Below, in pieces: positions 22,861 to 53,446 of a stretch of 64,000 nucleotides of DNA (the first letter of the stretch is position 1; every line of letters begins with the position of its first letter). Below the pieces are notes generated by a model. It did not search any database. It had not been told where the DNA came from and was given only the letters and a program-made list of their open reading frames with translations. The position numbers were made by a program, and so were the translations under genes. Source of the stretch: Oscillospiraceae bacterium (GTDB lineage: Bacteria > Bacillota > Clostridia > UMGS1810). The DNA lies in contig JAJXRJ010000006.1 of the NCBI GenBank assembly GCA_021629085.1, positions 6,660 to 70,659 of the forward strand, written 5' to 3'.

Positions 22861-24798
<1,938 letters not shown>

Positions 24799-24839: not shown

Positions 24840-25106
24840 CTAATATTCTTTCATTTGCGCACGTTTTAGAAGCGTTGATGCCGCAATGGGAGAGATATAG
24901 AGCACCGTTTTGCCGCCCGTTTCGCAAAGTACATACGACTTGGGCAGGTTTTCCATATCCACATTCACCACATTGTCCCGCATTTGCTCTGTTTTTAAAA
25001 ATTCCTTTGTGATGTTGGACAAAGAGGTGCTCTCCATGTCCATAATGGCCAAAATTTCTTCCTTTGCCACCACCAAATCGCCGCCAATGTGCAAAAACAT
25101 TACCAT
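24840..25106 (-). CDS. DUF370 domain protein (RemB/YaaB-like)
   Basis: About 86-88 aa (MFLHIGGDLVVAKEEILAIMD...ISPIAASTLLKRAQ) in the conserved recF-gyrB position occupied by B. subtilis yaaB/remB. The start is 25106 or 25100. Confidence 0.8.
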   Translation of the reverse strand: MVMFLHIGGDLVVAKEEILAIMDMESTSLSNITKEFLKTEQMRDNVVNVDMENLPKSYVLCETGGKTVLYISPIAASTLLKRAQMKEY

Positions 25107-26182
25107 TCCTCCAAAAATGCCTGCGCGTTTTTTATGTGATACAGCCGTTTGTCTGCGCCCATACTATTTTGTACGCGCTCTGTGCAGGTGATAAACACCT
25201 GCCGCCCTTTGATTTTTTCCAATAGATACGACCGCCGTGCATCGTCCAGTTCGCTTGTGATGTCGTCCAGGAGCAGTACGGGATATTCCCCTGTCAGGCT
25301 TTTGATGACTTCGCTTTCCGCAATTTTTAACGCAATCACCAAGCTTCGCTGCTGCCCCTGCGAACCATAAAGCTTCCCGCTTTTTTGATTGATGGTCCAC
25401 AAAAAATCGTCGCGGTGCGGGCCGATTAAACACATACGCATTTCTAACTCGCGCCGTTTGTGCAGGTTGAGCGCCTCGTACACCGCATCTTTTTTATCCG
25501 CATCCTCTTTCACAGAGGGAAGATAGGTGAGCGCAAGCTGCTCTTTGCCGCCCGAAAGCTCTAGCATGGATTCGCGTGCAAATGGTTCTAATGCGTTTAG
25601 CATACGCCTTCTGTAAGACGCAATCACCGCTGCGTACTCTGAAAGCCTTTCATTCCAAATGTCAAATATCGCGTCGTCTTTTGTGCCGCTTTTTAAATAG
25701 GCATTTTTTTGCTTGAGCGCTTTAAAATAAGCCATTAAGCTTTTAAAATACACTGGGTAGAGCGAACTTAAAAATGCGTCTAAAAACTGCCGCCGCATGC
25801 CAGGCCCGCTCTTTACCAGGCTTAAGTGCTCTGGTGTGAAAATGACGGCCTTTAGCACCCCTACAAGCTCGCTTAACCGCTCAAGGCCAATGCCGTTTAA
25901 CAGCACGCGCTTGGTATCATCCAAAAAAATCTGCACCGTCTGGCCGCGCCCGCCTGCCAAAAACGACGCGCCAAGCTCCGCCCTTTTTTCGCCAAACAAA
26001 ATGACTTCCCGATCTTTCGCACCGCGATAGGATTTCCCGTTGCAAAAAAAATACAGCGCTTCAATGATGTTGGTTTTGCCTTGACCGTTTGCGCCGTAAA
26101 ACACGTTTGCGCCTGCGCCGAATGAAAGGGAAAGCTCGGCATAGTTCCTAAAATTAGTAAGATGCATAGATTCGATTTTCAT
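25100..26182 (-). CDS. recF: DNA replication and repair protein RecF
   Basis: 360 aa with the Walker A motif GANGQGKTNIIEA, the signature SQGQQRSL and the Walker B motif VLLLDD. Confidence 0.95.
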   Translation of the reverse strand: MKIESMHLTNFRNYAELSLSFGAGANVFYGANGQGKTNIIEALYFFCNGKSYRGAKDREVILFGEKRAELGASFLAGGRGQTVQIFLDDTKRVLLNGIGLERLSELVGVLKAVIFTPEHLSLVKSGPGMRRQFLDAFLSSLYPVYFKSLMAYFKALKQKNAYLKSGTKDDAIFDIWNERLSEYAAVIASYRRRMLNALEPFARESMLELSGGKEQLALTYLPSVKEDADKKDAVYEALNLHKRRELEMRMCLIGPHRDDFLWTINQKSGKLYGSQGQQRSLVIALKIAESEVIKSLTGEYPVLLLDDITSELDDARRSYLLEKIKGRQVFITCTERVQNSMGADKRLYHIKNAQAFLEEW

Positions 26183-26406
26183 GCGCTCAAAACCTTGATA
26201 CGCACGGGCGCATCTTGGATGCCGTGCACCTCTACCAAATCGCCTGGGTACACCTTTTTCCCGCGCTTTACTTCCACTTCGCCGTTATATCGAACCAATC
26301 CCTGCAAAATGAGCTGCTTTGCATCAACGCCATTTTGGGAAATACCGGAAAATTTCAACAGCTGGTCGAGCTTGATAAATGGGGTTTTAATTGCAATGGT
26401 CTCCAT
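26179..26406 (-). CDS. yaaA: S4-domain RNA-binding protein YaaA
   Basis: 75 aa with an S4-like fold sequence (IKLDQLLKFSGISQNGVDAKQLILQGLVRYNGEVEVKRGKKVYPGD). It is in the conserved dnaN-recF position, with an ATGA overlap with recF. Confidence 0.85.
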   Translation of the reverse strand: METIAIKTPFIKLDQLLKFSGISQNGVDAKQLILQGLVRYNGEVEVKRGKKVYPGDLVEVHGIQDAPVRIKVLSA

Positions 26407-26418
26407 AGTTTCACCCTT

Positions 26419-27522
26419 TTAACGCTTGATTTGCCGCGGAAGCACCAAATAGAGGTATTGGTCCCCCTCTGAAGGAATCACCACGCAGGGCGATTTTTCA
26501 TCGTTAAATTCCATCACCAGCTCGTCGTCTTCCACTGCTTTTATGGTGTCTAGTAAAAATTTGATACCCAGCCCGATTTCCAAATTGCCGCCTTCATGGA
26601 AAACGGCAAGCTCTTCGTGGAAATTCCCCATTTTAGAGTAGCAGTCCACATGCAGAGCGCCGCCTTCTACTTTTAAAATGACCGGCAGCCGCGTGTCGTC
26701 ATAGTTGATGATAATCGCTGCACGTTCCACGGTTTGGGTGAACATCCTTCTATCTACCTTCACACGGATGGGATTGTTTGCCGGAATAAAGTGCGAATAG
26801 CTGATGTATTCGCCGCCCATGACGGGAGTGATCATACAAAAATTGTCAAATTCAAACATGGCATTGTTGCCCGAAAGCTTTATCACAACCGGCGTTTCAT
26901 CGTCGTTTAACACTTTCATCACTTCGTTTAAAATACGGCCCTTTAAAATAAAGTCAAACTGCTCGCCGCAGCCCTTTATGGCATGGCGGCGGATGGCCAG
27001 GCGGAACCCGTCAATGGCCACCAGTTTGGCAGAGTCATTGTCAATTTCAAATTTCACGCCGGTTAAAATGGGCCGGCTTTCGTCTGCGGCAACGGCAAAC
27101 ACGGTGTCGCGCACAATCTGTTTGAACTCTACTGACGGCATGGAGATTTCATGTTCGCCGTCAATGCGGTTTATTTCAGGATATTCTGACGCCGGCATGC
27201 CCATAATGTGAAATTTGTTGTTTTTGGTGTATATATAGGCTTCGTCTTTTTCGTTGACCTCAAAATGAATGACGCCCGCTTCTGATTTCCGCAAAATGTC
27301 AAATAAAATCCGCGCGTCCAGCACTGTTTCACCATGCTCTGAAATTTCTGCATCCATGTCACAGGCAATAGAAAGCTCTAAATTGGTGGACATTAGGCGC
27401 AAATTGTCATATGCGCAAAGCTTGATGCCCTTTAAAATCTCCATGCTGGAAGAGGGGGCAGTGGCTTTTGATACGTTGTTAACCGCGCTTAATAGTACAT
27501 CTTTGTCACAGTGAAATTTCAT
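26419..27522 (-). CDS. dnaN: DNA polymerase III beta subunit (sliding clamp)
   Basis: 367 aa (MKFHCDKDVLLSAVNNVSKA...), with three-domain clamp length and a conserved C-terminus (...YLVLPRQIKR). Confidence 0.95.
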   Translation of the reverse strand: MKFHCDKDVLLSAVNNVSKATAPSSSMEILKGIKLCAYDNLRLMSTNLELSIACDMDAEISEHGETVLDARILFDILRKSEAGVIHFEVNEKDEAYIYTKNNKFHIMGMPASEYPEINRIDGEHEISMPSVEFKQIVRDTVFAVAADESRPILTGVKFEIDNDSAKLVAIDGFRLAIRRHAIKGCGEQFDFILKGRILNEVMKVLNDDETPVVIKLSGNNAMFEFDNFCMITPVMGGEYISYSHFIPANNPIRVKVDRRMFTQTVERAAIIINYDDTRLPVILKVEGGALHVDCYSKMGNFHEELAVFHEGGNLEIGLGIKFLLDTIKAVEDDELVMEFNDEKSPCVVIPSEGDQYLYLVLPRQIKR

Positions 27523-28555
27523 AGGTTCCGTTTTCCTTTCTTAAAAGCCTGTAAACATTGGTGCAGGCCATTTTTCCTTCTTTTGTCATCACCATTACAT
27601 AAAAACAGTTCATCGCGTGGAACTGTGTGGATAAATCAAATGTGATTTCTGTTAAAATATCGTCCGTTTCGTTTTTGGAAAACGCCGTACGGGTATCCGT
27701 TAACACAAATACCCGGTTGACCGGCGAGCATTTGATGGTCAAAAGGCCATCCTCATAAAAAAGTTCGTGAAAAGTAGCGCCGGTGGACGCATAGGTTTTC
27801 TTTTGCTCCATGGCACGGATGATGCCGTCATAAGAAAATTCGTCCGCTGCAATCATGGTATAGCCGATGCCTTGCTCTTTTTCGCCGTGATTGTCGTCTG
27901 CCGCTACGCATACTAAATGCTTCCCTGCGCGCACCATCTGTTTCCATTCATAGGGGGCAAAGCCACAGTTTTGCATGGCCGAGCCGCTGTTGTAAATCTC
28001 CATGCCCCAAAGGCCTTCTAAACCAGTAAATTCGTTCAAATCCTGCAGTGACCACTGTGGATGGTTGTAGCACACCAAAAATCCGGATTCATTTGCAAGC
28101 TTGATCACATGGTTTGCATATTCTAAGCTGTAGCTGCGGGTTTCAATGGGCGGTTTGTAGTTTAAGGAGTGCGGGTCGACACCTTGTTTCTTTAAATTGT
28201 TGCACAAATATGGGTCGTCGGGATTAAATGCGATATGACAGGTGTTGTTGGGGTCTTTTGCATATAAATTTAGGTGATAGGTTTTTAAATAGTTGTAAGT
28301 ACGCTCCCTTGTTTTTTCCTCTGTGATGGAAAGCTCATACGACGTGATTGCAATAAATTCATCATCTGTCAAATCATTGTGGCTAAGAAGGTATTCATGG
28401 TCGGTAAACGCAACCACATGATACCCTTTTTCTTTATAAGCCGCTTTTATTTCTTCAGGCGTAAACTTCCCGTCTGAAAACGTGGTGTGACAGTGTAGGT
28501 TTGCCTTGTAATAGGGTTTTTCGTTTGTAATTAAAACTTGCTTCACCGCATCCAT
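27506..28555 (-). CDS. PHP (polymerase and histidinol phosphatase) family metal-dependent phosphoesterase
   Basis: 349 aa with PHP motifs LHCHTTFSDG (HxH), AFTDHE, YNHP and AADDNHG. Its last 17 nt overlap the dnaN start. The start may be ATG 28555 (Shine-Dalgarno sequence abuts it) or GTG 28546 (better spacing). Confidence 0.8.
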   Translation of the reverse strand: MDAVKQVLITNEKPYYKANLHCHTTFSDGKFTPEEIKAAYKEKGYHVVAFTDHEYLLSHNDLTDDEFIAITSYELSITEEKTRERTYNYLKTYHLNLYAKDPNNTCHIAFNPDDPYLCNNLKKQGVDPHSLNYKPPIETRSYSLEYANHVIKLANESGFLVCYNHPQWSLQDLNEFTGLEGLWGMEIYNSGSAMQNCGFAPYEWKQMVRAGKHLVCVAADDNHGEKEQGIGYTMIAADEFSYDGIIRAMEQKKTYASTGATFHELFYEDGLLTIKCSPVNRVFVLTDTRTAFSKNETDDILTEITFDLSTQFHAMNCFYVMVMTKEGKMACTNVYRLLRKENGTYEISL

Positions 28556-28808
28556 CCCCTTTATTTAATAAATATATACATAATTTATTTTTCAGAAGCA
28601 GTTATAATAGCAGCTGTTGAAAACTTGGATAACCCATTGCATCCCCTGCTATTTTGCTTTTTCTGGCTGTGGCTCATTTTTGTATAATTTGCGTTCACAA
28701 TCCACAAAACCCACAAGAGGAGTATGTTGGGACCATTAAAAAAATTTTTCCACACAAAATACACAGGCTGGTTATCCAGGTATCCACAAAAAGCTTGTGG
28801 ATAACAAA
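28556..28808. other. oriC: oriC, downstream module: DnaA-box cluster plus AT-rich unwinding-type region
   Basis: DnaA boxes: TGTGGATAA 28796-28804 (perfect), GTATCCACA 28780-28788, TTATCCAGG 28772-28780, TTTTCCACA 28746-28754, AATCCACA 28699-28706, TTGGATAAC 28625-28633. AT-rich block TTATTTAATAAATATATACATAATTTATTTTT at 28561-28592. Confidence 0.8.
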
Positions 28809-30140
28809 TTACTGATGTTTGATATTTTTTACAATATCGTCCACTAAATTTTTAATGGTAATGTCAGATGCATAGTCATTTTCAATTTTACTGACGCCGT
28901 GCAGCACCGTGGTGTGGTCGCGCCCTCCCAAAACCTGTCCGATTTTGGGGTAAGAAAGGTCAGTGAGCTCGCGGATGATATACATGGCAATTTGGCGGGG
29001 ATAGGCAATCTCTTTGGTTTTGCGCGCACTTTTTAAGGAGTTTTCGCGTAAATTAAAATGTTTTTCCACCGCATCAATAATCCGTTCCGGCGTGATGACG
29101 TTGTTTTTAACCAAATTAAAATCTTTGAGCGCCTCTTCTGCCATAGCGACGCTCACCGGCTTTCCCTCCAGGCCGCGCATCACAATGAGCTTCTTGATTG
29201 CGCCTTCCAGTTCCCGGATATTGGAGGTAATTTTCCCCGCAATAAATTTTAATACCTCGTCGTCCACTGTGAAATGAAATTGTTCCGCTTTTTGTTTCAA
29301 AATGGCAGCCCTGGTTTCAAAATCGGGTGGCTGGATGTCCACAATCAGCCCGCTTTCGAACCGGGTGCGCAGCCGTCCTTCTAAGGTATGCAGCTCTTTG
29401 GGAGGCCGGTCGCTGGAAATGATAATCTGTTTGTTTGCCAGATACAGCGTATTAAAGGTGTGGAAAAATTCCTCTTCACTGCTGGTTTTCCCCGCAATAA
29501 ACTGGATATCATCAATCATCAAAACATCAATGGTGCGGTATTTGTTGCGGAATTCCTCGTTTTTTTGCTCACGGATAGAGTTGATCAGCTCGTTGGTAAA
29601 CTGCTCGCTGGAGACGTACATCACCTTTTTTTCGGGATAGATGGAAAGCACCTGGTTGCCAATGGCATTCATCAGATGGGTTTTTCCCAGCCCCACGCCG
29701 CCGTAAATAAAAAACGGGTTGTAGAGGATGGACGGCGCTTCCGACACTGCCATAGCGGCCGCATGTGCAAATTTGTTGGAATTGCCGATTACATAAGTAT
29801 CAAACGTGTATTGCGGATTTAAATAGGCGGTTTTGGGGGATGTTTCTTTTTGCGGCATTTCTGAAAACAGCGGATCTGCCTGCGGCACTGTTTCCCCCTC
29901 TACCACTACGGTTAGGGAGATATCGCGCCCTAAAACCAGATAGAGCGCATTTTTCACCAAGTCGCGGTATCGTTCTAACAGCATGGTTTTGTTAAACACG
30001 TACGGCACTTCCAGCACAATTTCATGTTCAGAAATAGAAAGAGGCCGGATGGTTTTAATCCAGGTATTAAATGCGACAGGCGGCAGTTCTTCTTCTAAAA
30101 TTTGAATGGCCTCGGGCCAAACATGCAACAGGTCTTCCAT
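28809..30140 (-). CDS. dnaA: Chromosomal replication initiator protein DnaA
   Basis: AAA+ Walker A (GGVGLGKTHL), DnaA signature and a C-terminal HTH (DHTTVLHG). Start MEDLLHVW at 30140 has a GGAGA Shine-Dalgarno sequence and aligns with typical Firmicute DnaA N-termini. The ORF-track start at 30173 is possible. Confidence 0.95.
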   Translation of the reverse strand: MEDLLHVWPEAIQILEEELPPVAFNTWIKTIRPLSISEHEIVLEVPYVFNKTMLLERYRDLVKNALYLVLGRDISLTVVVEGETVPQADPLFSEMPQKETSPKTAYLNPQYTFDTYVIGNSNKFAHAAAMAVSEAPSILYNPFFIYGGVGLGKTHLMNAIGNQVLSIYPEKKVMYVSSEQFTNELINSIREQKNEEFRNKYRTIDVLMIDDIQFIAGKTSSEEEFFHTFNTLYLANKQIIISSDRPPKELHTLEGRLRTRFESGLIVDIQPPDFETRAAILKQKAEQFHFTVDDEVLKFIAGKITSNIRELEGAIKKLIVMRGLEGKPVSVAMAEEALKDFNLVKNNVITPERIIDAVEKHFNLRENSLKSARKTKEIAYPRQIAMYIIRELTDLSYPKIGQVLGGRDHTTVLHGVSKIENDYASDITIKNLVDDIVKNIKHQ

Positions 30141-30199
30141 GGTTTTCTCCATTCTTGCATTGTAATGAACCAAAAATTACACAAATCATAGATAAAATT

Positions 30200-30300
30200 C
30201 GGTTTTTTATCAGGTTATCCACAAAGTTATCCACTAAAACAGTACTTTTTGTGGATAATTTGTTAAGCGATTATAGAAATTTATACAGATATATCATAAC
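30200..30300. other. oriC: oriC, upstream module: DnaA-box cluster in the dnaA promoter region
   Basis: TTATCCACA 30215-30223 (perfect), TTATCCACT 30227-30235 and TGTGGATAA 30250-30258 (perfect), followed by AT-rich sequence. Confidence 0.8.
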
Positions 30301-30370
30301 AGATTTTCACATTTTTTTCAAGCGTTCCCACAAAAAAACTGCAATTTTATATGCAAACGGCAAAAAAACG

Positions 30371-30400
30371 TTGACAAACCCCCAATATATACAGTATAGT
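30371..30400 (+). promoter_or_regulatory. Sigma-A-type promoter of tRNA-Arg
   Basis: TTGACA (30371-30376), 18 nt, TATAGT (30395-30400), about 30 nt upstream of the tRNA. Confidence 0.5.
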
Positions 30401-30430
30401 ATACGGTGTTAGGAAATTTGGAATCTATTT

Positions 30431-30507
30431 GCGCCCATAGCTCAGCAGGATAGAGCGACCGCCTCCTAAGCGGTAGGCCGGAGGTTCGAATCCTCTTGGG
30501 CGCGCCA
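30431..30507 (+). tRNA. trnR-CCU: tRNA-Arg (anticodon CCU), CCA encoded
   Basis: Hand-folded cloverleaf. Acceptor GCGCCCA/TGGGCGC, D stem GCTC/GAGC, anticodon stem ACCGC/GCGGT with loop CTCCTAA (anticodon CCT), T arm GGAGG-TTCGAAT-CCTCT, discriminator G plus CCA. Confidence 0.9.
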
Positions 30508-30704
30508 GTCGAGTGCCTCGACGCGCAAGTCGCGTTCGGGGTTTTTGCTTTATTACGGCTTTGCGCTCGCGTTTAAGGCGGGTATCTTTTTGCGAGTTAT
30601 GCGTATTCAGCGCAGGGACACCTGTTTCTCGTAAATTTGTATGATAAATGCGATTCCAACAAGAAAGACAATATTTTTTCATTAATTTCTCCTACTTTTT
30701 ATTT

Positions 30705-30777
30705 ATGACATCTAGCAAATGTCATTTTTGTTCTTATTTTAACATATAATAGCTCTAATGACAAGCATAAAATGTCA
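30705..30777. promoter_or_regulatory. Two operator-like inverted repeats (TGACA-N9-TGTCA) around the XRE gene promoter
   Basis: ATGACAT-N7-ATGTCAT at 30705-30725 and ATGACA-N8-ATGTCA at 30758-30777. They flank a TATAAT at 30745-30750, and the second abuts the AAGGAG Shine-Dalgarno sequence of the XRE gene. Confidence 0.5.
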
Positions 30778-30788
30778 AGGAGTTCTCC

Positions 30789-31037
30789 ATGTATAAAAAT
30801 AGAAATCAGGATGGAACGTGCAACCTTTGCGGAAAAAAGATTACTGCGCTCAGAAAATCAATGAATCCAAAGGTTTCGCAAAATAAATTAGCGAAAAAAT
30901 TACAACTAATTGGAATTGATTTAGATAAAAATGCAATTCAAAGAATTGAAAGTGGAAAACGATTTGTGACAGATATTGAGTTAAATGCATTTGCAAAAAT
31001 ATTTTGTGTCACAGTAGATGCGTTATTAAAAGAATGA
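30789..31037 (+). CDS. Small XRE/Cro-C1 family HTH transcriptional regulator
   Basis: 82 aa with an HTH_3-like core (ITALRKSMNPKVSQNKLAKKLQLIGIDLDKNAIQRIESGKR). AAGGAG Shine-Dalgarno sequence 6 nt upstream. The context is very AT-rich. Confidence 0.75.
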   Translation: MYKNRNQDGTCNLCGKKITALRKSMNPKVSQNKLAKKLQLIGIDLDKNAIQRIESGKRFVTDIELNAFAKIFCVTVDALLKE

Positions 31038-31038
31038 G

Positions 31039-31065
31039 ACGGCGCTTTTTAAGCGCCGTTTTTTA
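31039..31065 (+). terminator. Intrinsic terminator after the XRE gene
   Basis: ACGGCGCTT (31039-31047) pairs with AAGCGCCGT (31051-31059), followed by TTTTTT. Confidence 0.8.
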
Positions 31066-31194
31066 TGTTTATGATATATTTTGTAAAACGAAGGAAATTT
31101 GAAAAAAGGTGTGTTCCATTTTCCCGGATAAAACTGCCAAAGCTATAGATCAGCCCCTTTCTAAAGCCGCAAACGCCTGGTGTAAACATTGCTA

Positions 31195-31224
31195 TTTACA
31201 AATTGCCCCAGGATGTGGTATACT
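31195..31224 (+). promoter_or_regulatory. Sigma-A-type promoter (extended -10) of eda
   Basis: TTTACA (31195-31200), 18 nt ending in TGG, TATACT (31219-31224). Confidence 0.45.
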
Positions 31225-31272
31225 ATATAAAATTTGTTATTTTGTAAATTGTTTGGAAAGGAAGTAAGAGAT

Positions 31273-31920
31273 ATGGACAAACACACAGTGATTTCTAAAA
31301 TTAAAGACGCGGGAATTGTTGCCGTGGTGCGGGCAGAAAACGGCGAATCGGCGCGTAAAATATCGGATGCATGCTTAGAGGGCGGCGTGCCGGCGGTGGA
31401 AATGACCTTTACCGTGCCGGGCGCGCACAAGGTGATTGAAGAGCTTGCAAGGGTGTATCAAAACGGCGAGATGATTCTTGGCGCGGGCACGGTTTTGGAT
31501 GCGGAAACGGCGCGGATTGCCATTTTGTCCGGTGCGCAGTACATTGTAAGCCCCTATTACGACGAGGCCACCGTGCGGCTGTGTAACCGCTATGCCGTTC
31601 CCTGCATGCCGGGCGTCATGACCATTGCAGACGTTGTAAAGGCGCTGGAAATGGGTGTGGACATCATCAAACTGTTCCCGGGCGACGCATTTGGCCCCGG
31701 CATGGTCAAAGCCATCAAAGGCCCTATCCCGCAGGCAAACATCATGCCCACCGGCGGCGTGGATGTCAACAATGTTGCACAGTGGATTAAAGCCGGCGTA
31801 GTGGCAGTCGGCGCGGGCGGCGCGCTCACAGCGGGCGCAAAAACCGGCGATTACGGATTAATTACTGAAACTGCCAAAAAATTTGTAGAAAACATTAAAA
31901 ACGCGCGGGCAAAAAAATAA
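31273..31920 (+). CDS. eda: 2-dehydro-3-deoxyphosphogluconate / 4-hydroxy-2-oxoglutarate aldolase
   Basis: KDPG aldolase sequence (GIVAVVRAE..., GGVPAVEMTFT, GAGTVLD, PGVMT..E, KLFPG). Start MDKHTVI at 31273. Confidence 0.85.
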   Translation: MDKHTVISKIKDAGIVAVVRAENGESARKISDACLEGGVPAVEMTFTVPGAHKVIEELARVYQNGEMILGAGTVLDAETARIAILSGAQYIVSPYYDEATVRLCNRYAVPCMPGVMTIADVVKALEMGVDIIKLFPGDAFGPGMVKAIKGPIPQANIMPTGGVDVNNVAQWIKAGVVAVGAGGALTAGAKTGDYGLITETAKKFVENIKNARAKK

Positions 31921-31985
31921 GCATTCCGGGTTTTTTATAAAATACGGTTGATTTCAGGAAAGCATGTGGGAAAGGGAAGAATACT

Positions 31986-33071
31986 ATGGCAAAAGAAGAA
32001 CGGAAAATTGCGTCGGATAAAGTTGCCTCAGCAGCCAGGGACGGCAAGGAAGCGGCCATTTCTGAGGCGCTGCGGCAAATTGAAAAAACGTTTGGCCAGG
32101 GCTCTGTGATGCGGCTGGGCGATGCGCCCATGCGGGAAGTGGATGTGGTGCCCACCGGCGCGCTGAGCTTGGATGCGGCGCTGGGCATTGGCGGAATCCC
32201 CCGCGGGCGCGTGACAGAAATCTATGGGCCGGAGTCGTCTGGTAAAACCACTGTGTCGCTGCACATCATTGCAGAGGCGCAAAAGCTGGGCGGCGAAGTG
32301 GCGTTTATTGACGCGGAGCACGCGCTGGATCCGCACTATGCCAAAAAACTGGGAGTGGATGTAGACCGGCTGATTGTGTCCCAGCCCGACGCGGGCGAGG
32401 ACGCGCTCGAAATCACCGAGGCGCTTGCGCGCAGCAACGCGTTTGACGTCATTGTCATTGACTCGGTGGCGGCATTGGTGCCGCGTGCCGAAATTGCGGG
32501 CGTGATGGGCGATTCGCATGTGGGATTGCACGCGCGGCTCATGAGCCAGGCGCTGCGCAAGCTCACGGGTGTGATCAACAAGAGCAATACCGCCGTCATT
32601 TTTATCAACCAAATCCGTGAAAAAGTGGGCGTCATCTATGGAAATCCAGAGGTGACCACCGGCGGCCGCGCGCTCAAATTCTATTCTTCCATCCGGATTG
32701 AAGTGCGCCGCGGCGAGCCCATCAAGGACGGCACGTCCATCATTGGCAACCGGACGCGGGTGAAAGTGGTAAAAAATAAAATGGCACCGCCCTTTAAGGA
32801 TGCGGAGTTTGACATCATGTACGGCGAGGGCATTTCCAAAGAGGGCTGTGTGCTGGACATGGCAGTGGAATATGACATCATCCAAAAGAGCGGCTCGTGG
32901 TTTTCCTACAATGGCAACCGGCTGGGCCAGGGCCGCGATAAGGTAAAGGAATATATGAAGGAGCATCCGGACTTTTTAGAAGAAGTGACGAAAAAAGTGC
33001 GCGACTATCATCGGGAGAAAACCGAACCGGCCGGGGAAGGAATGCCAGATGCGCCGGGTGCGGCGGAATAA
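31986..33071 (+). CDS. recA: Recombinase RecA
   Basis: 361 aa ([11 protein letters not shown], Walker [27 protein letters not shown]). Confidence 0.97.
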
Positions 33072-33074
33072 TCC

Positions 33075-33698
33075 ATGAAGGTGACAGACATCCGCGCACA
33101 GGCGCACCATCACGACCGCGTTTCGGTGTATCTTGACAAAAAATATGCCTTTTCACTGGAAATGACCGATGCGCTGCAATTTGGATTAAAAATTGGCATG
33201 GAGTTAACAGAAGAAGACGTGGCGCGCATGCAGGAGCAAGGCGATTTTGGGAAAGCGCGTGCGGCGGCGTTGGAGGTAATTGCAAGAAAAGCGGTCACCA
33301 AGAAGTGCCTTTGTGATATGCTCAAAAAACGCGGCTACAATGCGGATATTGTGGATGCGGTAACATCCGATCTTTTTTTGTTAGGCTATCTTGACGATGC
33401 GGCCTTTGCCATTCGCTACGCCCAGGATGCGGCGGAAATCAAGCGGCACGGGCCGCTTCGGATTGCTCAGGATTTGCAAAAAAAAGGCGTGCAGAAAGCC
33501 GATATTGATGCGGCCATTGCCGCTATTGACTTTGAAAACAACGGGGAAATCCAGGCGCTTTTAACCCAAAAATTTCGGGGCGCGGATTTTCACGATCAAA
33601 AAATGAGGCAAAAGGCCTTTCGGTTCCTGGCGTATCGGGGATACACGCCGGGCCAGATTTATGCGGCCTTGGGGGGATACAGGGATTGTGAAGAATAA
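33075..33698 (+). CDS. recX: Recombination regulator RecX
   Basis: 207-aa helical-repeat protein immediately downstream of recA. RecX-like repeats (LGYLDDAAFAIRYAQ..., ALRFLAYRGY). Confidence 0.8.
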   Translation: MKVTDIRAQAHHHDRVSVYLDKKYAFSLEMTDALQFGLKIGMELTEEDVARMQEQGDFGKARAAALEVIARKAVTKKCLCDMLKKRGYNADIVDAVTSDLFLLGYLDDAAFAIRYAQDAAEIKRHGPLRIAQDLQKKGVQKADIDAAIAAIDFENNGEIQALLTQKFRGADFHDQKMRQKAFRFLAYRGYTPGQIYAALGGYRDCEE

Positions 33699-51874: not shown

Positions 51875-53446
51875 TTATTCCTTTTCTGAGTCCTTGATGA
51901 TCTTATATTCCAGCGAATCCACCAGCGCAATCCAGCTGGCCTTTAAAATGTCGCTTGATACCCCCACTGTGGTCCAGCGGTCCGCGCCGTCTGTGGATTC
52001 GATGAGCACGCGCACAGTGGACGCAGTGGCGTCCTGGTCAATCACGCGCACTTTGTAGTCTAAAAGCTTTACATCCGCAATCTGTGGATAAAACACTTCC
52101 ATGGCCTTTCTGAGCGCCTTGTCCAGCGCGTTCACCGGGCCGTTTCCCTCTTCGGCGGTAATTTCGTCCCGCCCGTCCACCCGGATGCTGATGAGCGCAG
52201 TGGTTAAGTTGTCCTTGCCCACACTCTCCTGCTCGCTTAAAATGCGGAACCGGTTTAGGGCAAACACGGGGTTGTATTTTCCGATAATTTTCCGGATGAC
52301 AAGCTCCACGCTGCCCTCCGCCCCCTCAAACTGATAGCCGCGCCGTTCCAGCTCTTTCAGGCGCTTGGTGATGGCCGCAATGTCCGGGCTGTCTTTTTGA
52401 ATATCAAGGTCGGGGAACAGCGCCTGCACTTTGTTAAACACCGCCGCCTTGCCGCTCACCTCGGAAACCAGAAGCTGCCGGCGGTTGCCCACTGCTTCCG
52501 GAGCGACGTGTTCAAATGAACGGGGCATTTTGCACACCGCGTCAATGTGCATGCCGCCCTTGTGTGCAAAGGCGTTTTTGCCCACATAGGGCGCGCCGTC
52601 CGGCAGAGCGAGGTTGGCCGTGTCCGCAATATACCGGCTTGCCGCCGTAAGCTTTTTTAGCCGCGGGCCAATCACGTCCATCCCCATCCGGGTTTGCAGG
52701 TTGCCAATTACCGTGGCAAGGTTGGCGTTGCCGCACCGTTCGCCGCACCCGGTAAAGGTGCCCTGCACCTGTGTTGCGCCCGCGCGCACTGCCATTACGC
52801 TGTTTGCCACCGCCATGCCGCAGTCGTCGTGGCAGTGGATGCCCACCATTTTGCCGTATTTTTGCACCACAAACGAGACTGCGTCAAACACCTCGTCTGG
52901 CAGCGCCGCGCCGTTGGTGTCGCACAGCACAATGGCATCCGCGCCCGCCCAATAGGCAGCCTCCAGCGATTTTAACGCGTATTCGCGGTTTTTCTGATAC
53001 CCGTCAAAAAAATGCTCCGCATCAAAGATGACGGTTTTTTGGTGCTCCTTTAAATAGCAGATGGTATCGTAAATCATGTTGAGGTTTTCATAGAGCGGGG
53101 CCTGCAAAATGTGCTCTACGTGAAAGTCCCACGCCTTGCCAAACACGCTTACCACGTCGGTTTGCGCGCGCAAAAGATTTTTTACGCCTGCATCGCGCGA
53201 AACCGCGCCGCCCGCCCGCCGGGTGCTGCCAAAGGCCACCAGCTTGGCATTTTTTAACGAGAGCGACGCTGCCCGCTCAAAAAAATCGAGGTCTTTGGGG
53301 TTGGACGCAGGGTTTCCCGCTTCAATATAGGCCACGCCCACGTCGTCTAACGCCTTGGCAATCTTTAATTTGTCCTCCACCGAAAGGCTGATGCCCCCGG
53401 TCTGAACGCCCTCGCGCAGCGTACAGTCAAACAGTGAAATGTTCAT
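51875..53446 (-). CDS. cimA: (R)-citramalate synthase (LeuA/HMGL family)
   Basis: 523 aa. N-terminus LFDCTLREGVQTGGISLSVEDKLKIAKALDDVGVAYIEAGNPASNPKDLDFF is typical of the CimA clade, with a C-terminal LeuA-dimer regulatory domain. Confidence 0.75.
   Translation of the reverse strand: MNISLFDCTLREGVQTGGISLSVEDKLKIAKALDDVGVAYIEAGNPASNPKDLDFFERAASLSLKNAKLVAFGSTRRAGGAVSRDAGVKNLLRAQTDVVSVFGKAWDFHVEHILQAPLYENLNMIYDTICYLKEHQKTVIFDAEHFFDGYQKNREYALKSLEAAYWAGADAIVLCDTNGAALPDEVFDAVSFVVQKYGKMVGIHCHDDCGMAVANSVMAVRAGATQVQGTFTGCGERCGNANLATVIGNLQTRMGMDVIGPRLKKLTAASRYIADTANLALPDGAPYVGKNAFAHKGGMHIDAVCKMPRSFEHVAPEAVGNRRQLLVSEVSGKAAVFNKVQALFPDLDIQKDSPDIAAITKRLKELERRGYQFEGAEGSVELVIRKIIGKYNPVFALNRFRILSEQESVGKDNLTTALISIRVDGRDEITAEEGNGPVNALDKALRKAMEVFYPQIADVKLLDYKVRVIDQDATASTVRVLIESTDGADRWTTVGVSSDILKASWIALVDSLEYKIIKDSEKE

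Follow-up and report, generated by a model that had tools for sequence, protein, structure and literature searches.

A stand-alone PHP-family phosphoesterase gene between oriC and dnaN in an Oscillospiraceae bacterium is probably a lineage-specific insertion into the dnaA operon

Background

The replication origins of Bacillus subtilis and Clostridioides difficile are bipartite, with oriC1 on one side of dnaA and oriC2, which includes the DnaA-trio and the unwinding element (DUE), between dnaA and dnaN, and the gene context of this Firmicute origin is rnpA-rpmH-dnaA-dnaN (PMC7561715). The locus described here differs in that an additional gene lies next to dnaN. A sequence-only reading of the window, the 64,000-nucleotide stretch of Oscillospiraceae DNA that was analyzed, had reported a 349-codon open reading frame with PHP motifs between dnaA/oriC and dnaN, and its coordinates, 27506-28555 on the minus strand, were confirmed. 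Two proposals had been attached to this stand-alone PHP-family phosphoesterase gene, either that its product is a replisome-associated nuclease or phosphatase, or that the gene is a horizontally acquired insertion into oriC.

Results

The longest open reading frame for dnaA (28809-30173, minus strand) encoded 454 residues, 443 in the database call, and the product matched the Pfam models Bac_DnaA (241.9 bits), Bac_DnaA_C and DnaA_N. The dnaN gene (26419-27522, minus strand; 367 residues) encoded a protein with the three beta-clamp domains in Pfam and was single copy, with one match in the whole genome. Upstream of dnaA, a pattern search located the three DnaA boxes of oriC1 (30215-30258; box starts at 30215, 30227 and 30250), two of them perfect and one with a single mismatch, and promoter-like sites for dnaA were found on the minus strand at 30321-30270. 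Downstream of dnaA, the pattern search and the comparison with relatives defined the oriC2 cluster (28615-28804), with one perfect box (28796-28804), two that deviate by a single mismatch (28780-28788 and 28746-28754) and the degenerate boxes GTTATCCAAG/TTTTCAACA at 28615-28632. These boxes were collinear with a pair of boxes found in the relatives ahead of a triplet repeat and the unwinding element. They were followed by a triplet run, GCTGCTATTATAACTGCTTCTG (28593-28614, minus strand), that appeared DnaA-trio-like by eye and from its position only; its counterparts in the relatives, CTACTGCTACTACTA and TATTATTACTATTATTA, also identified by eye, separated the final DnaA boxes from the AT-rich block. 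The corresponding block here, the probable DUE, is the AT-rich segment that had been noticed earlier at the start of the PHP gene, and it was found to occupy 32 nt (28561-28592) with 3% G+C (97% A+T), a gap of 5 nt remaining between it and the ATG at 28555. The equivalent block in the relatives was directly 5' of the dnaN ribosome-binding site. As far as the DUE, oriC2 was intact and collinear with that of the relatives, and the place of the dnaN start was taken by the PHP start. The window as a whole contained 32 DnaA boxes with at most one mismatch, compared to 10.6 expected, and the cumulative GC skew formed a plateau at its minimum (about -4.3 to -4.4) between positions of roughly 27 and 30 kb.

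The ATG at 28555 abuts the Shine-Dalgarno sequence, whereas a GTG at 28546 lies 9 nt past the AGGGG Shine-Dalgarno and is for this reason the likelier start of the PHP gene, giving a protein of 346 residues, the same length as the database gene call (P0002). The PHP barrel extended over approximately residues 13-260 and was followed by a C-terminal beta-sandwich at about residues 262-349. At the other end of the gene, the PHP stop, which ends at 27506, and the dnaN ATG at 27522 overlapped by 17 nt (27506-27522, minus strand), exactly as previously noted, and a weak dnaN Shine-Dalgarno, AAAGGAAAA (27531-27539), was inside the PHP gene. The tail beyond the invariant Ala330 was 19 residues long, compared to 11-12 residues in most homologues, so that 7-8 extra C-terminal codons account for the overlap. 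No promoter-like site on the minus strand was detected between dnaA and the PHP gene or between the PHP gene and dnaN, nor was there a strong terminator-like site in the dnaA-PHP intergenic region or at the PHP-dnaN junction. The lack of a separating promoter or strong terminator makes it likely that the PHP gene is transcribed within the dnaA operon.

All of the PHP motifs listed by the sequence-only reading were present, LHCHTTFSDG (residues 20-29), AFTDHE (49-54), YNHP (163-166) and DDNHG (220-224), and the Pfam PHP model (PF02811) matched residues 20-77 with 31.7 bits, above the gathering cut-off of 26.4. An alignment of 45 sequences, including the query, showed that His21, His23, Asp28, His53, Glu74, His165, Asp220, Asp221 and His223 were invariant, and these residues are taken here to be metal ligands by analogy with solved PHP enzymes. 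The AlphaFold model (pLDDT 94.9) was a distorted (beta/alpha)7 barrel that could be superimposed on six stand-alone PHP structures with Z scores of 15-20 over 180-203 residues. The closest match was BVU_3505 (3e38.pdb; Z 20.2, 202 residues, rmsd 2.7), also a two-domain protein of about 340 residues, with an alignment that spanned model residues 10-322, and the next was TM0559 (2anu.pdb; Z 19.8, 186 residues, rmsd 2.4). The sequence profile of the PHP family also matched 3e38 (E 2e-05) and 2anu (E 1.7e-04). Both are structural-genomics entries for predicted PHP-like metal-dependent phosphoesterases with only 18-21% identity to the PHP protein, and their titles carry no assigned substrate, so the match names the fold and class, not the function. 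The best NCBIfam match was NF038032, CehA/McbA (E 1e-18, in two stretches, the better at residues 136-262), at 67.8 bits below the curated cut-off of 80 and hence a resemblance without membership. One homologue (P0108) bears the NCBI name CehA/McbA family metallohydrolase, and ESM Atlas clusters labelled "PHP domain-containing" and "CehA/McbA" matched the model with TM scores of 0.77-0.89; for clusters with the CehA/McbA name, the scores were 0.74-0.79 when normalized by the query and 0.87-0.91 by the cluster model. The CehA/McbA name derives from carbaryl hydrolases; nothing in the analysis of the PHP protein pointed to carbaryl as a substrate.

Other PHP proteins were more distant. RNase AM/TrpH and the 3',5'-nucleoside bisphosphate phosphatases (7ug9, 9etk, 2yb1 and 3o0f) have the same stand-alone barrel (Z 14.8-17.0) and share the N-terminal HxH...SDG motif with the PHP protein, but they lack the C-terminal beta-sandwich, and their sequences align at the N-terminal motif only; the corresponding NCBIfam models scored 27-31 bits against cut-offs of 375-400 and aligned with just the first 40 residues or so. 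The PHP domains of Pol III alpha, PolC and PolX have the superfamily fold and the metal-binding motifs in common with the protein but matched it with Z scores of only 11-12, compared to about 20 for the stand-alone BVU_3505/TM0559-like type to which it was assigned. Unlike the polymerase PHPs, the 349-residue protein consists of barrel and beta-sandwich alone with no polymerase fusion, and the NCBIfam scores, 33.5 against a cut-off of 426 for PolX and 13 against 1002 for Pol III alpha, place it outside the polymerase families. EndoQ, which is characterized by additional domains of its own beside the PHP core and by recognition of DNA lesions, gave a Z score of 17.0, with only 203 of its approximately 400 residues aligned at 14-15% identity, and no EndoQ-named model was among the NCBIfam matches with E values up to 0.1. 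PADLOC defence-system models gave no match. The PHROGs matches, one family of phage DNA polymerases and one of unknown function, were generic (about 32 bits, residues 17-102) and covered only the first half of the core, and were not taken as a sign of phage origin. As judged from its sequence and model, the PHP gene is predicted to encode an intact stand-alone PHP-superfamily metal-dependent phosphoesterase that is probably active, and its product is a member of a large, multi-copy gut Clostridia family (BVU_3505/TM0559-like, labelled "CehA/McbA-like").

In the relatives, from the same family and class, dnaA was directly upstream of dnaN in all 25 that could be assessed, with a gap of approximately 150-750 bp, compared to 1286 bp here, and none of the 25 intervals contained a PHP match. 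The homologues themselves were scattered. No dnaA, dnaN, yaaA or recF gene was found near any of 11 loci in the relatives (1.5 kb flanks) or near any of the top 80 loci from a set of 185,579 species genomes (4 kb flanks), a total of 91 loci with no linkage to the origin or to dnaN. The 82 same-strand neighbours of homologues belonged to 115 different Pfam families, of which GH43 (6), DEAD helicase (4), and GH2, MFS and ABC (3 each) were the most common, so that the neighbourhoods were a heterogeneous mixture of glycoside hydrolases, transporters, housekeeping genes and tandem paralogues, the latter at 12 of the 80 loci. Carbohydrate-utilisation loci were considered as a common setting, but glycoside hydrolases or sugar transporters made up only about one fifth of the neighbours, a weak hint. 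Among the genomes compared, the position between the putative DUE and dnaN was unique to this one, which holds a single copy of the PHP family.

The closest homologue of the PHP protein was 41-44% identical. Since the closest relative of DnaA among 5.8 billion proteins was itself only 65% identical, the low identity of the PHP homologues reflects a poorly sampled lineage, one with no close relative among sequenced genomes. No starred clade in the PHP tree included the PHP protein, the nearest rows were a tandem pair from unclassified Clostridia (SH-aLRT 93), and no donor was assigned to the gene. The PHP branch was long, 1.0 compared to a median of 0.33, a length that may stem from altered function or from sparse sampling.

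The G+C content of the PHP gene was 43.0%, lower than that of dnaN (46.2%), dnaA (45.8%) and the genome (49.5%). Its description as AT-rich was correct in direction but overstated: the G+C content was at the 5.7th percentile of long open reading frames, but GC3 and codon usage were at the 15th and 24th percentiles, respectively, so that the composition is only mildly atypical. Three strain differences were found within the gene, all of them synonymous and in the third position. A 208-nt contig from one public run (X1; 27367-27574) spanned the PHP/dnaN junction with no differences, and a 151-nt contig from another (X2; 28517-28667) spanned the oriC/PHP junction; run X1 may be the source sample, and X2 is from another study. 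The exact junction sequence had no matches in JGI metagenome contigs. The PHP gene is real and maintained.

The perfect DnaA box reported within the 3' end of the PHP gene, TTATCCACA (27626-27634, minus strand), was verified; it lies in the PHP coding sequence 104 nt upstream of the dnaN start and corresponds to the codons for Asp-Leu-Ser-Thr, residues 307-310. Phe-Asp-Leu-(Ser/Asn) is typical of the PHP family at this position and, consequently, coding constraints may by themselves have produced the box. There are 41 perfect boxes in the genome, about one per 52 kb, so roughly 2% of 1-kb genes would be expected to contain one by chance, and the box might for this reason be functional, but a single perfect box is weak evidence.

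Discussion

The interpretation that best accounts for these results, and that probably holds, is that a known-family PHP phosphoesterase was inserted into the dnaA operon in this lineage, an accident of gene order with no dedicated replication role. The inserted segment, about 1.03 kb with one gene, would have entered exactly between the oriC2 unwinding element and the dnaN start, so that the PHP gene, instead of dnaN as usual, now directly follows the DUE. As the anatomy of the locus suggests, the gene would then most likely be co-transcribed as part of the dnaA-dnaN-yaaA-recF-gyrB operon, and the extra C-terminal codons, about eight, that reach into dnaN may couple dnaN translation to that of the PHP gene. 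The enzyme itself most likely hydrolyzes a small phosphate ester. The second of the earlier proposals was borne out in part: the comparison with relatives supports an insertion, whether by horizontal transfer or by a move from elsewhere in the genome, but the gene is not inside oriC, as it sits between an intact oriC2 and dnaN. A search of the flanks for the repeats of a transposition or target-site duplication gave only short, low-identity matches of the chance type, and no transposase or integrase open reading frame was found beside the gene.

Alternatively, the position may have been selected without a role in the replisome, a metabolic enzyme being kept near oriC for gene dosage and for growth-coupled, DnaA-regulated expression, with an internal box that might also tune dnaN. 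The gene is intact, all of the ligands are retained, the differences between strains are synonymous, it is the sole copy of the family in the genome, and the perfect DnaA box is at its 3' end, all of which speak for a selected arrangement. However, the box codons encode the family-typical Phe-Asp-Leu-Ser motif, and the arrangement was seen in no other lineage compared, which gives no indication that it was selected repeatedly. Selected placement is therefore considered unlikely.

A role as replisome accessory, in which the protein would be produced together with DnaN, bind to it and serve at the clamp as a proofreading nuclease, pyrophosphatase or repair endonuclease, is very improbable. Archaeal EndoQ binds the PCNA clamp and offers a precedent for a clamp-linked PHP nuclease, and the PHP gene overlaps dnaN, sits in the dnaA operon, contains a perfect DnaA box, and encodes a fold that is common to the Pol III alpha, PolC and PolX domains and to EndoQ, an endonuclease acting on DNA lesions. 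On the other hand, the arrangement was found in this genome alone, the family is scattered beside unrelated genes, the nearest structures are stand-alone phosphoesterases rather than polymerase PHP domains, and the PolX and Pol III alpha scores are far below their cut-offs. A regular-expression scan of the PHP protein for the clamp-binding peptides QL[SD]LF and QLxLxL found none. Such a peptide was sought as an accessible segment, typically part of a flexible terminus or linker; the only loose matches, QVLIT (residues 6-10, in a beta-strand) and QDLNEF (residues 171-176, inside the barrel), were both in ordered regions of high pLDDT, and the glutamine of QDLNEF is conserved across the PHP family. 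Several observations thus count against the nuclease or phosphatase proposed by the sequence-only reading, 1) none of the 91 homologue loci was linked to the origin, 2) all 25 relatives lacked a PHP gene in the interval, 3) the composition was only mildly unusual and 4) no clamp-binding motif was found. It would likewise be most surprising if the protein, like archaeal EndoQ with PCNA, had been co-opted to act with the clamp in replication or repair, kept stoichiometric with DnaN by translational coupling and, together with DnaN, placed under DnaA control by the internal box.

A chimeric metagenome join, by which an unrelated gene would have come to separate dnaA from dnaN, might be suspected in a draft genome of 82 contigs (93.6% completeness) from the absence of a close homologue, but this is largely refuted already, as the PHP frame overlaps an intact dnaN start by 17 nt, the short contigs from runs X1 and X2 span both junctions, and the codon usage is inside the range of the genome.

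If the PHP gene is an ordinary insertion, the spacer between the DUE and dnaN tolerates an unrelated gene and the locus otherwise matters little. It would nevertheless bear on automated origin prediction, in which dnaA and dnaN are assumed to be adjacent, and on the amount of spacing that an operon running from the DUE to dnaN can absorb, and it points to a large, structurally well-defined PHP family in gut Clostridia, often with several copies per genome. Only binding of the enzyme to the clamp, or an action on DNA, would make the locus truly interesting.

The origin can be compared directly with those of B. subtilis and C. difficile. As in these organisms, clusters of DnaA boxes flank dnaA on both sides, and a triplet run, trio-like by eye, and an AT-rich block lie downstream of it. 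The gene order rnpA-rpmH-dnaA-dnaN was not found at this locus; rpmH is on contig C26 instead of upstream of dnaA, where its place is taken by a tRNA-Arg gene and recA/recX. The other difference is the PHP gene itself, which in this genome stands between the probable DUE and dnaN.

Gene organization of the dnaA-dnaN region

Analysis of ORFs and Pfam matches placed dnaA (28809-30173), the 349-codon PHP gene (27506-28555), dnaN (26419-27522), a small S4-domain gene of the yaaA type (26179-26406), recF (25100-26182) and gyrB (22861-24771) on the minus strand. Translation showed that the PHP ORF was open throughout, with zero internal stops, and that all four motifs quoted in the sequence-only reading, LHCHTTFSDG, AFTDHE, YNHP and DDNHG, were present. 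The 17 nt overlap with dnaN was as claimed, the PHP start was preceded by an AT-rich block of 32 nt with 3% G+C (28561-28592), and a perfect DnaA box (27626-27634) was located within the gene, with the dnaN ATG 104 nt further on. The observation was confirmed, subject to three corrections concerning the start codon, the degree of AT-richness and the weight of the DnaA box.

The ATG at 28555 directly abutted an AGGGG Shine-Dalgarno sequence, while a GTG at 28546, 9 nt after it, was the probable start codon. The database gene call for the protein, 346 aa, has the length expected from this GTG. The gene was only mildly AT-rich: its G+C content of 43.0% (5.7th percentile among long ORFs) compares with a genome value of 49.5% and with 46.2% in dnaN and 45.8% in dnaA. 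GC3 fell in the 15th and codon usage in the 24th percentile. There were 41 perfect DnaA boxes genome-wide, about 1 per 52 kb, versus the approximately 17 predicted from base composition, and the chance of at least one in a given 1-kb gene was about 2%. The box at 27626-27634 codes for D-L-S-T, and F-D-L-(S/N) was common at that position across PHP homologues. The fifth perfect box of the window (TTATCCACA) was far from oriC, at 52083-52091 on the minus strand.

Upstream of dnaA, the canonical rnpA-rpmH-dnaA context was absent from 30174-33698, which contained tRNA-Arg(CCT) (30431-30507, plus strand), an AT-rich stretch of 30-35% G+C (30600-31200) that includes an 82-codon ORF without a Pfam match (30789-31037, plus strand), a KDPG/KHG aldolase gene (31234-31920), recA (31986-33071) and recX (33075-33698). 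The rpmH gene was found on another contig of the same genome, C26, near 39081. With rpmH elsewhere, other genes upstream and the PHP gene downstream, the origin region is rearranged on both sides of dnaA.

Comparison with relatives

Among relatives from the same family and class, dnaN was located in 40, and 29 of the loci were fetched and searched with dnaA, PHP, yaaA and recF. The position of the PHP gene between dnaA and dnaN was not conserved. In all 25 loci with upstream sequence, dnaA ended approximately 150-750 bp before dnaN with no PHP match between them, while the distance in the window was 1286 bp. In one distant relative (locus L042 of genome G040), dnaN started unusually far from the dnaA match, at about 745 bp, and the interval had no PHP match.

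Most of the spacers from eight relatives inspected by eye led from DnaA boxes through a triplet run and an AT-rich block to a ribosome-binding site, with the ATGAAA of dnaN next, as reported for clostridia including C. difficile (PMC7561715). The window matched this standard Firmicute plan through the AT-rich block, where the PHP start then took the place of dnaN. Because the replacement follows the block directly, the insert approximates the gene alone, about 1.03 kb, and leaves oriC2, the DnaA-box cluster and AT-rich block downstream of dnaA, intact.

Four public metagenome runs of gut or faecal origin, from three studies, yielded Logan contigs that covered the region in part and at low depth. 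A 208 nt contig from run X1 (27367-27574, 0 differences) spanned the PHP/dnaN junction and a 151 nt contig from run X2 (28517-28667) spanned the oriC/PHP junction. The three listed strain differences within the gene, at 28349, 28367 and 28496, were all synonymous third-position changes. These data speak for purifying selection and make a chimeric join less likely; the support is real but modest, because X1 may be the source sample. Over the tRNA-Arg gene (30438-30497) the summed contig depth was very high (150-930) in all four runs, which reflects tRNA conservation across many organisms, not the abundance of this genome.

Identity of the PHP protein

The protein matched the Pfam PHP model at 31.7 bits (threshold 26.4), and its best NCBIfam match, the CehA/McbA metallohydrolase domain, scored 67.8 bits, under the cut-off of 80. 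The NCBIfam models for PolX, Pol III alpha, RNase AM and pAp-phosphatase were far under their cut-offs and matched only the first ~40-90 residues, the stretch containing the HxH..SDG motif. In an alignment of 45 sequences including the query, His21, His23, Asp28, His53, Glu74, His165, Asp220, Asp221 and His223 were invariant, so that the PHP-type metal site is complete. In a confident AlphaFold model (pLDDT 94.9, pTM 0.93), a barrel was followed by a β-sandwich from about residue 262. The structural neighbours were 3e38 (BVU_3505, Z 20.2), 2anu (TM0559, Z 19.8), BAD_1165 and EndoQ (both Z 17.0), RNase AM (Z 15.8-15.9) and the PHP domains of Pol III alpha, PolC and PolX (Z 10-12), and ESM Atlas clusters annotated as PHP domain-containing or CehA/McbA gave TM scores of 0.74-0.89 normalized by query. 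A PADLOC search had zero matches. Taken together, the family matches, metal site, model and structural neighbours identify the protein as a stand-alone PHP phosphoesterase that is intact, presumably catalytically active, and part of an uncharacterised subfamily. A polymerase-type PHP domain was ruled out by the Z scores of 10-12 and by the polymerase models falling far under their cut-offs.

The best match among 5.8 billion proteins had 41-44% identity, an unremarkable value since the DnaA of the window also had no relative above 65%; the lineage is poorly sampled. Genomes G008, G013, G022 and G023 each had three to five full-length copies and the window's genome one, while none was present in G003 and G015 (genus g4), from the genera with the closest DnaN. 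Linkage of homologues to dnaA or dnaN was not found: dnaA, dnaN, yaaA and recF were near none of 11 PHP loci in relatives and none of the best 80 loci from a set of 185,579 species genomes. Close to these homologues and on the same strand were 82 neighbouring genes, which represented 115 different Pfam families, among them GH43 (6), DEAD helicases (4), GH2, MFS, ABC ATPase and pseudouridine synthase (3 each), and lacto-N-biose phosphorylase, PTS EIIC, EF-Ts and Tex (2 each), with no conserved partner gene. Carbohydrate-active and sugar-transport genes made up about one fifth of the neighbours, a weak hint as to the substrate. Tandem paralogues occurred at 12 of the 80 loci, and tandem duplicates or triplicates were frequent in the family (L046, L047, L052, L056, L058, L059, L076, L082, L093, L098, L118 and L119). 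In a maximum-likelihood tree the protein had a long end branch (1.0 versus a median of 0.33) and no well-supported sister, so the tree would name no source for the gene, whether by transfer or by relocation. The family comprises expanding, uncharacterised enzymes of gut Clostridia for which a substrate screen is worthwhile.

Expression and possible function

A consensus scan of the minus strand placed promoter-like sites ahead of dnaA (30321-30270), but neither the dnaA-PHP spacer nor the PHP-dnaN junction contained a promoter-like or a terminator-like site; every weak terminator-like hairpin was within coding sequence. With no such sites separating them, the PHP gene should be transcribed within the dnaA operon, like dnaN in other Firmicutes. 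The PHP tail past the invariant Ala330 was 19 aa, compared to 11-12 aa in most homologues, so that the 7-8 or so extra codons cross both the weak dnaN Shine-Dalgarno sequence (AAAGGAAAA, within the PHP coding sequence) and the dnaN ATG. This overlap seems to be incidental to how tightly the two genes are joined, an anatomy that could nevertheless result in translational coupling.

The sequence-only reading considered that the protein could be a replisome-associated nuclease or phosphatase co-expressed with the clamp, but its co-option as a clamp-coupled replisome factor is very improbable. EndoQ, whose similarity to the protein (Z 17) is limited to the PHP core, partners with PCNA, and this is a precedent, not evidence. 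A regex scan of the protein found neither clamp-binding peptide, QL[SD]LF or QLxLxL, and the motif check gave only two loose matches, QVLIT (residues 6-10) and QDLNEF (residues 171-176), both in ordered secondary structure. Moreover, the Gln of QDLNEF is conserved across the PHP family, which is unlinked to dnaN. The gene is a further member of a known enzyme family that has come to lie at an unusual place, seemingly by accident.

The locus has a bipartite origin of the same type as those of B. subtilis and C. difficile. The canonical gene context of that origin is broken twice in this lineage, 1) by the PHP gene, which lies between the probable DNA unwinding element and dnaN, and 2) by the location of rpmH on a different contig.
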